From the NCBI GenBank assembly GCA_016839605.1, contig JAEOTX010000181.1, positions 1 to 21,946 on the forward strand: DNA of 21,946 bases, read 5' to 3'. A program made the position numbers and the translations under genes. Positions 7,866 to 10,721 of the stretch are shown one piece after another. Below the pieces are notes generated by a model. The model was given only the letters and a program-made list of their open reading frames with translations. It made no database searches and was not told the DNA's origin. How positions within the stretch are numbered: the stretch's first letter is position 1; every line of letters begins with the position of its first letter. Source of the DNA: Candidatus Thorarchaeota archaeon. Its GTDB lineage: Archaea > Asgardarchaeota > Thorarchaeia > Thorarchaeales > Thorarchaeaceae.

Positions 7866-8082
7866 ACTCCGTTCGAGTACAGAACAGAGAGATGGCTTGA
7901 GTACTTCGAGGAATTTCTGGCTATAAACTCAACTATCTGAGAAAGAATGTACACCAATCCGAATTCTCTTTCTTCCCACAACCCAATTGTTTTTTTGTAC
8001 AATCGTTCAATGCTATCATACGAAACTTTATCAGAAATTTAGGTATTATCTGATTGTAGAATAGTAACAGGTGCAACAAGGA

Positions 8083-8727
8083 TTGTCTGATGAAATAATG
8101 GAAATGCGCTATGAATTCTTCAGTTGGAGAGGATTCCTTGTTGGCGCTGCGATAATTTCCGCAGCCCTCGTTTTGCAATCGTTTCTTGGGTTTCCCAACA
8201 TATGGGTTGAGAGTGGAACACAATTCGCCATTCAGATAGTCCTTACAGGCATTGTAGTAGGTATCGCATCAGGGAGCATCTTGGTCTTCCTGTATCCGCC
8301 AAACCAGGACATAATTGGAGTGGTTGGTCTTGGGAGCGATGATGCACCACAGTATCTGTCACTTGCACTCGTAGTCATTGCCTTGGTAGACCCGATTCTA
8401 AGCGGTTTTATCTTCTTCTTTGACTACTTTGCAAACGACCCATTCATTGTGATTTGGGTCATAGCGAGCTTCGCTGCTCCTAGTGTAGGTCTTACTGCGG
8501 CAATGTTTGACCGGACAAATGCGATAGCAGCAGATCTCAGGCTATACTTTGCACATCACGATAAACTTGTGTTGACCAGCCTCGACTGGCTACAAGGAGT
8601 GGGGCCTCGAACCGCGATGTATCGAATGGGCATGCTAGAGAATGCTGCAAGGAAATTCGAAGGACTTCGTTTCTCAGGACATGTCATTATCAGAGAAAAG
8701 GATACTTTCTCAGTGAAGAATGAATGA
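8083..8727 (+). CDS. Hypothetical membrane protein (about 4 TM plus soluble C-terminal domain)
   Basis: Clean ORF with four hydrophobic segments. TTG 8083 preferred over GTG 8071 because AGGTG (SD-like) overlaps the GTG. Confidence 0.8.
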   Translation: MSDEIMEMRYEFFSWRGFLVGAAIISAALVLQSFLGFPNIWVESGTQFAIQIVLTGIVVGIASGSILVFLYPPNQDIIGVVGLGSDDAPQYLSLALVVIALVDPILSGFIFFFDYFANDPFIVIWVIASFAAPSVGLTAAMFDRTNAIAADLRLYFAHHDKLVLTSLDWLQGVGPRTAMYRMGMLENAARKFEGLRFSGHVIIREKDTFSVKNE

Positions 8728-8738
8728 ATGCTGATTAC

Positions 8739-9053
8739 CTACTTCTGATGTTTTTTCTTCATGTGACTCGCTAGTCCTTCCTCAGTCCACGCAACCCATT
8801 CACACTTGAGACAACTAAGCTTGGAACTACCTAAGCCAAACCTCGGCGCAGCCTTCTCGGTTAATTCGTAGATAGTGCCTCCATATCCACTGTGCTTCTT
8901 AGTGTTCACCTTGAATCGCTTCCTAAAACAATCAACACAGATACACATGTCTTTTCGAGCATCGTGTATGAACTGCTCTTCCAGATTTTTCGCGATTCCT
9001 ATAGGGTCTACTGTCTTTCCACAGCTTTCACAATTATCTACCGTGTTAACCAC
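8739..9053 (-). CDS. Small basic double zinc-finger protein (N-terminal C4 plus C-terminal C2H2)
   Basis: CESC...CVDC and CLKC-x12-H-x4-H (CLKCEWVAWTEEGLASHMKKKH). GTG 9053 preferred; ATG 9101 is the alternative. Confidence 0.85.
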   Translation of the reverse strand: MVNTVDNCESCGKTVDPIGIAKNLEEQFIHDARKDMCICVDCFRKRFKVNTKKHSGYGGTIYELTEKAAPRFGLGSSKLSCLKCEWVAWTEEGLASHMKKKHQK

Positions 9054-9133
9054 GCTCGCCGTGTATTGTAAGGAGAATCTTCTATGCTGTCTGTAGCGCA
9101 TATCTGCGGAGTATAAGACTATTTCCAGTCATT

Positions 9134-9171: not shown

Positions 9172-10506
9172 CTATTCTTCGGGTTTATTTTGGGCCGCCA
9201 GCTCAGCTGAAGTTGTAAAGACATCGAGGACCCCCTCCCCAGTCAGACATGATGTTCCGATATAAGCTACAGGATGCAATTTCTCCTCGCTGCCAAATTT
9301 CTTAGCAAGCTCTTCGGCAAGTGCGAAGCCCTCTTCTGGTGTCACGGGTTGGTCTCCTTCATCTTCATCGAATTCCGCGACTAGATCTGTTTTGTTGGAA
9401 ACAACAACTATTGGAGGCACCTCTTCTGTAGTGATAGTAGCTTCTTTGAGCCAGAAATCTATGGATTCAAAGCTCCATCTGTCTGAGGCTGCATAAACTA
9501 CTATCAGCGCCTCTGCTTCATCATAGAATTCAGTTCTTGATATCTTTGACTTGACCGCCTCGTCAAACGACCAGACTCTAATTCTCACCCTGTGATTCTC
9601 GGTCTCCACAATTTGAGTGTGTATATACGGTTCTCCACCAGGTGCATCGTCTTCCACTGGTTCGAGTTCGGCCTTTCGCATTAGACTGCGCTTGCCAACT
9701 CCGGCTTCGCCCAGAATTAGGATTTTCGATTGGATCAGAGGTTTGACAACATGGGCTGGAGTGGTCTTCACGGCTGGTTCGGCTTGCACAGCTTCTGGCT
9801 CAGGTACTGTTTCGATCTCTTCAAAAACCTCTTCCTCGAATTCATCTTCTGTTGGAGGGGCGGGTACGGCTTCCAATTCAGGCTCTGGTTCTGCTACATC
9901 GATTTCTTCAGCTGGTTCAGTGACTGGAATTTCAACCTCAGGCGGAACCATTTCTGCCTCTGGCTCTTTTTCCTCTTCGGCAAGTGCGTCTTTCTGCGTT
10001 GTCGGAGTTGAAGCAAAAGTAGTTGGAGCTGCGGTTATTTCATCTGAACCTGCAACATTGATTCTAAGACCTGGTTTTGCCGGTTCTGCTTCCTCTTCAT
10101 CCACAGAATCTGCTTCAGGTTTCGGCCTTGCTGCCATGAAGGTGTCACTCATCGACTCTACAGCATTTAGTGCATCCGTGATGTTGCTGAAATCATCTCC
10201 GTCTAGGACCGTAACACCTGGGACATCAAGCTCAGGATTCTCCACAAAGGTGGCTGCAGTATCATCGGTCGACAACGGTTCACTTGGAGTCTTAGGTGCT
10301 TCATCCTTGACAATAGTAGCGACTTTGGGTTCAGGCCTTGGCTTGGTTGTTTTTGGTTTCGCTTCTGCAGGTGCCGTTTCAAGTTCTTGGGCAGATACTA
10401 TCTTCTTTGCAGTTGGCAGTCCTATTCGTACAAGAACGTCTCGCAAGATACCCGGAGCAAGAATTTTCCTTCTGACTCGAAAGAACATCTCAACCTCTTC
10501 AAGCAC
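9172..10506 (-). CDS. Long acidic/proline-rich protein with C-terminal degenerate Rab/Ras-like small GTPase domain
   Basis: KILILGEAGVGKRS (G1), RIRVW, FYDEAEALIVVY, SF..W, PIVVVSNKTD (G4), TSCLTGEGV (G5). The frame stays open upstream to 10701, so the real start is probably at about 10620-10644. Confidence 0.88.
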   Translation of the reverse strand: MLEEVEMFFRVRRKILAPGILRDVLVRIGLPTAKKIVSAQELETAPAEAKPKTTKPRPEPKVATIVKDEAPKTPSEPLSTDDTAATFVENPELDVPGVTVLDGDDFSNITDALNAVESMSDTFMAARPKPEADSVDEEEAEPAKPGLRINVAGSDEITAAPTTFASTPTTQKDALAEEEKEPEAEMVPPEVEIPVTEPAEEIDVAEPEPELEAVPAPPTEDEFEEEVFEEIETVPEPEAVQAEPAVKTTPAHVVKPLIQSKILILGEAGVGKRSLMRKAELEPVEDDAPGGEPYIHTQIVETENHRVRIRVWSFDEAVKSKISRTEFYDEAEALIVVYAASDRWSFESIDFWLKEATITTEEVPPIVVVSNKTDLVAEFDEDEGDQPVTPEEGFALAEELAKKFGSEEKLHPVAYIGTSCLTGEGVLDVFTTSAELAAQNKPEE

Positions 10507-10721
10507 ATTGTCAAATGATCTATGCTTTGTGGGTATCTTCTTTTTGACAATACCTTTGTCTCTGATTTCAACATAGCCTGGAATGAGCGAAACGCCAATG
10601 GTAGTTCCTGGTACTATCAGCTCCTGCGACGCTCCAATAAGCAGATGAGAATCGACTGCCGAATTTGTTTGATAACTGTTTCTCCGACTTCGTGCAGCAA
10701 ACTAGCAATTCTACTGCATTA

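Follow-up and report, generated by a model that had tools for sequence, protein, structure and literature searches.

Asgard archaea attract study because their repertoires of small GTPases are expanded and resemble those of eukaryotes. The structural study of Thor-Rab concerns a canonical small Rab, and archaeal Rabs, Thor-Rab included, lack the C-terminal cysteine that is prenylated in eukaryotes (PMC10933270). In a survey of the Asgard Ras superfamily, 159 divergent sequences were explicitly set aside without annotation as potential new subgroups confined to particular taxa (bioRxiv 10.1101/2024.02.28.582541). PseudoGTPases, for their part, have been reported from bacteria to human (PMC12490416; PMC5593906), and eukaryotic pseudoGTPase domains sit in larger proteins, where they are presumed to be binding modules (PMC5593906, PMC12490416). 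We found no literature link between pseudoGTPases and Asgard archaea. Here, we analyze a gene on a stretch of 21,946 nucleotides (positions 1 to 21,946 of contig JAEOTX010000181.1, assembly GCA_016839605.1; the whole stretch is referred to as the window) from a Candidatus Thorarchaeota archaeon. The gene occupies 9172..10620 on the minus strand (482 codons plus the stop codon at 9172-9174; P0123) and encodes a basic domain at the N-terminus, an acidic disordered linker that holds a single conserved helix, and a degenerate C-terminal G domain. By the sequence-based definition of pseudoenzymes, the alignments and structural models support the classification of this C-terminal domain as a Rab-like pseudoGTPase.

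The original prediction had placed a Rab-like pseudo-GTPase domain at 9172-9735. This region is riddled with stop codons on the plus strand, while the minus strand is open and carries all of the flagged motifs, so that the domain stands with its strand corrected to minus (9175-9735, 187 residues). It is the C-terminal third of a three-part protein of 482 residues and not a stand-alone GTPase. The Ras/Rab fold itself spans residues 293-478 (9187..9744, minus strand), as delineated by Pfam, sequence matches to the Protein Data Bank (PDB), an AlphaFold2 (AF2) model and Foldseek. The Pfam Ras profile (PF00071) matches the domain with 59.3 bits (E 4.5e-16) and the full protein with 55.6 bits, against a cut-off of 21.6. 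The Roc and Arf profiles also exceed their cut-offs for the G domain, the dynein light intermediate chain profile (DLIC) matches it weakly (E 0.022), and the NCBIfam small_GTP model falls below its threshold (19 bits against 42.5). The closest solved relatives by sequence are Ypt51, Rab1, Rab14, Rab9 and Sec4. In the AF2 model of the full protein, built with a 65-sequence alignment, the predicted local distance difference test (pLDDT) score exceeds 90 over residues 293-478. Foldseek matched this part to Sec4, Rem2, RhoA, many Rabs and Thor-Rab (7ezb, 7eze) with E values of 1e-13 to 1e-11 and template modeling (TM) scores by target of 0.7-0.84. Both the curated Pfam threshold and the predicted fold, a six-stranded sheet with five helices, thus place the domain in the Ras superfamily.

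In Ras, S17, T35 and D57 serve Mg2+ binding, G60 and Q61 serve γ-phosphate sensing and catalysis, and F28, NKxD and SAK recognize the guanine base. We compared these positions by HMMER alignment to Ypt51, Rab1 and Rab14, with a separate profile alignment for G3, and assessed conservation in the 65-sequence family alignment. The HMMER alignment places Arg at the Ser/Thr of GK[S/T], Gly at the Switch I Thr and WSFDEA opposite WDTAGQ, which bears out each of the motif substitutions that had been read from the sequence. The P-loop, GEAGVGKRS (9685..9711, minus strand), retains its invariant Gly and Lys residues (G304, G309 and K310; E305 and V308 are invariant as well), and the Mg-ligand position, Arg311, is unconstrained. 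Next to the invariant G309 and K310, position 311 has an entropy of 2.20 bits (86th percentile of the domain) and is occupied by Glu in 29 sequences, Arg in 16, Gln in 8, Gly in 6, Asn in 2 and Ser in 2; the next residue, 312, is Ser or Thr in 63/65. Switch I (residues 318-336) is the most variable stretch of the domain and contains no conserved Thr or Ser across the 65 sequences. The equivalent of G3, WSFDEA (9556..9573, minus strand), has invariant W350, S351, F352, D353 and A355 and no equivalent of Gly60 or Gln61. In the AF2 model, S351 is the last residue of the strand and F352 the first of a helix. In the profile alignment, 'SF' is a two-residue insertion and D-E-A-V-K lies opposite D-T-A-G-Q, a reading on which D353 may be the retained Walker-B Asp. 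The family reads W-S-F-D-[EL]-A-V-[KR] here, without the DxxG Gly under either alignment and with Ala or Lys/Arg at the Gln position; on the profile alignment, Val replaces Gly60 in 64/65 sequences and Lys/Arg replaces Gln61.

G4 and G5 are retained. G4 is NKTD (9385..9396, minus strand), with N409 and D412 invariant and K410 in 64/65 sequences, and G5 is TSC (9247..9255, minus strand), with S457 invariant and Cys in place of the usual Ala in 61/65. The base-stacking residue equivalent to Ras Phe28 is Val or Ile throughout the family, whereas it is Phe in 12/14 canonical Rab-like paralogs of the same genome. These 14 paralogs served as a control, and all of them have GK[ST], the Switch I Thr and DxxGQ. 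Of the features of a functional switch, the domain thus has G4 and G5, and lacks the G1 Ser/Thr, the G2 Thr and the Gly and Gln of G3. The Rab-like segments RVRIRVW, FYDEA and IVVY are present on the minus strand, together with NKTD and TSC as originally predicted, and the C-terminus (...AAQNKPEE) contains no Cys, so that the prenylatable motif of eukaryotic Rabs is lacking in this protein. Segments resembling RabF2, RabF4 and RabF5 (RIRVW, FYDEA and IVVYAAS) are present, and the RabF1 region (IGxDF) is replaced by a variable loop.

Set beside the Rab-like GTPases (PF00071; Thor-Rab 7ezb/7eze, Ypt51 1ek0, Rab1, Rab14), which have the same fold and are its best sequence relatives, the family shares GxxGVGK, NKxD, the G5 Ser, a strand 3 of three hydrophobic residues and Trp, F-Y-x-x-A, V-Y and a helix-3 'S-F-x-x-x-x-x-W'. 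It differs from them in having no P-loop Ser/Thr, Switch I Thr, DxxG Gly, catalytic Gln or base-stacking Phe, and in its N-terminal extension of ~290 residues, which consists of a novel domain and the acidic disordered linker.

These features are not peculiar to a single sequence. A search of 5.8 billion proteins yielded 174 homologs of similar length, which carry public labels such as Thorarchaeota 'Rab family GTPase', 'Arf-like', 'GTP-binding' or 'hypothetical'. We found no mention of the representative accessions KXH71916, OLS30845 and UCE08916 in papers or supplements. All of the ~120 listed homologs, down to 53% identity, have W-[SC]-F-D-x-A and NKxD. In these homologs GK is followed by any of E, G, R, Q, K, N, S and A, without preference for GK[S/T]. 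Conservation of the GKR and WSFD substitutions, which the original prediction had proposed to examine, is therefore divided: W-S-F-D is invariant in the 65 sequences, and the Arg of GKR is merely one of several tolerated residues. Orthologs with intact motifs would have pointed to strain-specific decay, and an intact set of G1, G2 and G3 occurs in none of the >170 homologs. We also calculated the rates of nonsynonymous (dN) and synonymous (dS) substitution; dS is saturated for most pairs, and dN/dS values are given as upper bounds. Relative to same-genus orthologs, the G domain has a dN of 0.08-0.09 and a saturated dS of >1.5, which puts dN/dS below ~0.06. The corresponding values are 0.03-0.05 for the N-terminal domain, 0.06-0.13 for the linker helix, and 0.16-0.29 and 0.15-0.25 for the disordered linkers 1 and 2, respectively. 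No internal stops or frameshifts are present in the family members examined. These comparisons indicate that the G domain is under strong purifying selection and that its degeneracy is family-wide, not local.

We are confident that the domain is neither a canonical Mg-dependent switch nor a product of decay. Strain-specific decay of an ordinary Rab-like gene could draw on one circumstance, namely that the called open reading frame (ORF) has no canonical start for the conserved N-terminus. However, the motifs are the same in >170 homologs, dN/dS is <0.06, stops and frameshifts are absent, the neighborhood is syntenic throughout the family, four assemblies agree on the sequence, and the CTG codon at which the gene most likely begins is conserved and is the sole start possible in one relative (L003). 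We therefore regard this explanation as refuted. On balance, we lean towards a conserved pseudoGTPase that binds guanine nucleotide but is inactive as a switch and as a hydrolase. Nucleotide binding is proposed because G1, G4 and G5 are conserved: the P-loop Gly residues and Lys310 would still contact the β-phosphate, and N409-K410-x-D412 and S457 would contact the guanine. The family-wide losses would remove the Mg2+ ligands (P-loop Ser/Thr and Switch I Thr), the γ-phosphate contact (DxxG Gly), the catalytic Gln and the base-stacking Phe. Guanine nucleotide would then still be bound, probably weakly or without canonical Mg2+, the GTP/GDP conformational switch could not run, and hydrolysis would not proceed at a useful rate. 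The invariant surfaces W-S-F-D-x-A and D-R-W-S-F, at Switch II and helix 3, could provide a constitutive binding platform, which the acidic disordered linker and its conserved helix would tie to the basic N-terminal domain. Several observations weigh against this interpretation. Without the Mg ligands and Phe28, nucleotide binding would be weaker. The P-loop Lys is lost in a clade of paralogs and in a sister-family ortholog (GEAQVGVKS, GVGMSS) in which NKxD persists, so NKxD may be kept for reasons besides base binding. In addition, D353 could be a Walker-B Asp on the profile alignment and S/T312 is conserved, so that there may be a non-canonical metal site.

The first two of these observations would suit a class-i pseudoGTPase, in which no nucleotide is bound, the domain is purely a protein-interaction scaffold and the G1, G4 and G5 residues are structural. 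Five contacts have gone together (P-loop Ser/Thr, Switch I Thr, DxxG Gly, Gln and Phe28), relatives of the same architecture lack the P-loop Lys yet have NKxD, and class-i examples such as the AAGAB psGD act as binding modules (PMC12490416). Against this, GxxGVGK, NKxD and the G5 Ser are near-strictly kept over 65 orthologs with saturated dS (K410 in 64/65), and solved class-i pseudoGTPases are generally without these motifs, as stated for AAGAB (PMC12490416). We consider such a scaffold a serious but clearly less probable alternative. A genuine non-canonical GTPase, with D353 as Walker-B Asp, S/T312 or an acidic residue as metal ligand and a partner or monovalent cation for catalysis, seems to us unlikely. 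The profile alignment does set D353-x-A355 on D57-x-A59, S/T312 is present in 63/65 sequences with the G1 Lys, G4 and G5 intact, and there are genuine GTPases without the Gln (Rap) or the G3 Asp (MglA). But Switch I has no conserved Thr/Ser and is the domain's least conserved part, Gly60 gives way to Val in 64/65 sequences and Gln61 to Lys/Arg, and Ser/Thr at the position equivalent to 312 is common in canonical paralogs (GKTS, GKSS) and so constitutes no new compensating ligand.

Among eukaryotic proteins, the preferred reading, a nucleotide-binding pseudoGTPase, finds its nearest analogs in pseudoGTPases and atypical GTPases (p190RhoGAP pG1/pG2, AAGAB psGD, CENP-M and dynein LIC; Rnd and RGK), which likewise combine a GTPase fold with conserved motif loss. 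Foldseek ranks the RGK protein Rem2 second among the structural matches of the G domain. The family has no specific sequence kinship to these proteins, its best matches being ordinary Rabs, and it differs from class-i pseudoGTPases in keeping the G1 Lys, G4 and G5. The suggestion that it is an archaeal counterpart of the eukaryotic domains thus holds in the sense of an analog; the tree and distribution described below point to an independent origin within one archaeal order and not to orthology.

A further parallel, as a functional analogy only, is with the dominant-negative mutants Ras S17N and Rab S/T22N, in which the same P-loop Ser/Thr is missing. Engineered mutants of the S17N type have lower Mg2+ and nucleotide affinity and are locked onto their exchange factor. 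The archaeal family differs in being natural, multiply degenerate and without a known partner. It is conceivable, though we rate it as less probable even than the non-canonical GTPase, that the protein is a natural 'dominant-negative-like' Rab: lacking the P-loop Ser/Thr, the Switch I Thr and Phe28, it would remain permanently in a nucleotide-poor state of low affinity and so clamp an exchange factor, or some other regulator, of the ~15-30 canonical Thorarchaeota Rab-like GTPases. If true, it would serve as a built-in decoy or scaffold in the tuning of a proto-eukaryotic small-GTPase network, placed by its basic N-terminal domain, and would be the first regulatory pseudoGTPase described in archaea.

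To place the family phylogenetically, we followed the N-terminal domain that distinguishes it. A profile of this domain, run against 1.84 billion proteins, matched only 44 representative clusters; the match invariably lies at the N-terminus, and every full-length match carries a G domain with D-R-W-S-F, W-x-F-D and NKxD. Among 301 sampled Asgard genomes, the N-terminal domain is present in 68/76 of those belonging to the same family as the organism, in the single genome (1/1) of a sister family of the same order, and in none (0) of the ~224 genomes searched from other families. A maximum-likelihood tree separates the G domains that carry the N-terminal domain from the 14 canonical paralogs by one split (100/99, branch length 1.38). 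A single split fits one fusion-plus-degeneration event followed by duplication. From tree and distribution, we infer that the protein is an independent, order-specific derivative of archaeal Rab-like genes with a single origin. The window's own genome (G000) contains two tandem paralogs of the same architecture on another contig (C50, L035), at 679-1995 and from 2633 to the contig end, both on the plus strand. The first has GEAQVGVKS, in which the P-loop GK is disrupted, WTFEGS and NKTD; the second is truncated where the contig ends. The sister-family ortholog (L049; G019:C21, 2382-4079, minus strand) is 565 residues long, reads GEDDVGMSS (Met for Lys), WPLNEA and NKID, and has tandem E-T-K-V-E-A-P repeats as its linker.

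A separate Rab-like protein of 200 residues is encoded elsewhere in the same genome (L030; contig C98:7798-8262, plus strand). It has GKRT, W-R-W-P-F-N-N for WDxxGQ and T-N-A in G5, and its branch, which is very long (2.58), sits beside a canonical paralog. It may represent a second, unrelated pseudoGTPase in this genome.

The N-terminal domain (residues 1-75; 10396..10620, minus strand) is basic and family-specific, and is predicted to form three strands followed by two helices. Its pLDDT is >90 in the full AF2 model (residues 1-70) and 88 when modeled alone, and its invariant residues are G5, T6, T7, E18, R20, D21, K22, G23, K26-K28 and S35. It has no Pfam match even at E up to 10 and no convincing fold relative, the best values being a VIA Z of 5.3, a Foldseek E of >0.1 and an atlas TM of ~0.5. 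The weak structural matches (ROK, TsaB and ribosomal proteins) resemble a generic three-strand-plus-helix unit. A feature search of the ESM atlas returned no usable match for it, and for an AbrB/SpoVT-like reading of its 'RDKGxVKKKIP' segment there was no AbrB-type structure among the matches listed. The domain is followed by linker 1 (residues 76-139; 10204..10395, minus strand), which is disordered, Pro/Lys/Glu-rich and poorly conserved (pLDDT <50); in the AF2 model the disorder extends over residues 73-140. Within the linker region lies a conserved amphipathic helix (residues 140-165; 10126..10203, minus strand). The helix is modeled at 147-162 with a pLDDT of ~80, and the invariant residues A150, L151, V154, E155, S158, D159 and F161 coincide with it. 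Linker 2 (residues 166-285; 9766..10125, minus strand) is acidic and disordered (pLDDT <50), varies in length through indels and holds a short conserved L-R-I-N-V-x-G motif. An ORF of 319 residues, rich in Ser and Gly, runs over this region on the plus strand (9617-10576). We rejected it as a gene because it is the antisense shadow of the acidic, Glu/Pro-rich linker.

The start of the gene required revision. The mechanical and public ORF call begins at GTG 10506, giving 444 residues, and omits 38 conserved codons. The frame is open to 10701 and contains no ATG, GTG or TTG upstream of 10506. The omitted codons read L-I-V-P-G-T-T-...-R-D-K-G-x-V-K-K-K-I-P, which matches the N-terminus of nearly every homolog (M/L-I-[IV]-P-G-T-T at the very beginning). 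Most differences within the 35 upstream codons are silent; in the comparison with one relative (L009), for example, 22 changes are synonymous and 2 replace the residue. The probable start codon is a CTG (10618..10620, minus strand). It aligns with ATG in SMTZ1-45 (L046) and with TTG in two other relatives (L049 and L050), and all same-genus orthologs retain CTG-ATA-GTA-CCA-GG. In L003, a TAG stop lies immediately 5' of the CTG, so no upstream start is possible there. A GGAG-like motif is found 12-17 nt 5' of the CTG in all orthologs compared. The runs listed as containing this stretch are four DNA runs from one marine-sediment study, with no RNA run among them, and the start region is identical among the contigs assembled independently from them. 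From these comparisons, the gene most likely starts at the conserved CTG (10620-10618). A CTG start implies that gene callers truncate or mis-start many family members, with N-termini such as 'VSEEL...', 'MVKKK...' and 'MFFRV...'. A scan for promoters and terminators with a bacterial sigma-70 model, which is unsuited to archaea, found sites no more commonly than in shuffled sequence.

The genomic neighborhood is conserved. The order of genes for a geranylgeranyl reductase, a phosphoribosyltransferase, the pseudoGTPase, a zinc-finger protein, a membrane protein, an ABC ATPase and two FtsX permeases is shared by the members of the genus, by SMTZ1-45 and by a 3.16-Mb Thorarchaeota contig. Directly downstream of the pseudoGTPase gene lies the C4 + C2H2 zinc-finger gene (8739..9101, minus strand; ~105 residues), whose product has weak Pfam C2H2 matches only. 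Its invariant residues are C8, C11, C39, C42, C81, C84, H97 and H102, and most sequences contain S-G-Y-G-G-T-I-Y-E-L. Its homologs start at the position of GTG 9053, and the call at ATG 9101 may be 16 codons too long. This gene is directly downstream in 14/14 related loci of the family (f1), with gaps of 4 nt to ~170 nt, and it is not adjacent to the pseudoGTPase ortholog of the sister family (G019). As the whole block is syntenic, adjacency alone is no proof of a functional link. A complex prediction with the N-terminal domain, the G domain and the zinc-finger protein scored 0.00 without controls and is evidence neither way. A gene for a multi-pass membrane protein of 218 residues without a Pfam family (8071..8727, plus strand) faces the zinc-finger gene in convergent orientation, their ends 12 nt apart, and is conserved with 56-88% identity at the corresponding position of every related locus.

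For studies of nucleotide recognition, residues ~286-482 comprising the G domain would be a defined, expressible target for Mg-independent nucleotide binding. For the annotation of Asgard genomes, the family implies that counts of 'Rab-like GTPases' include members that are probably not switches. Paralog expansion, followed by catalytic inactivation and recruitment as a scaffold, is a hallmark of eukaryotic signaling, and this Thorarchaeota family suggests that the same course was also taken within an Asgard lineage.

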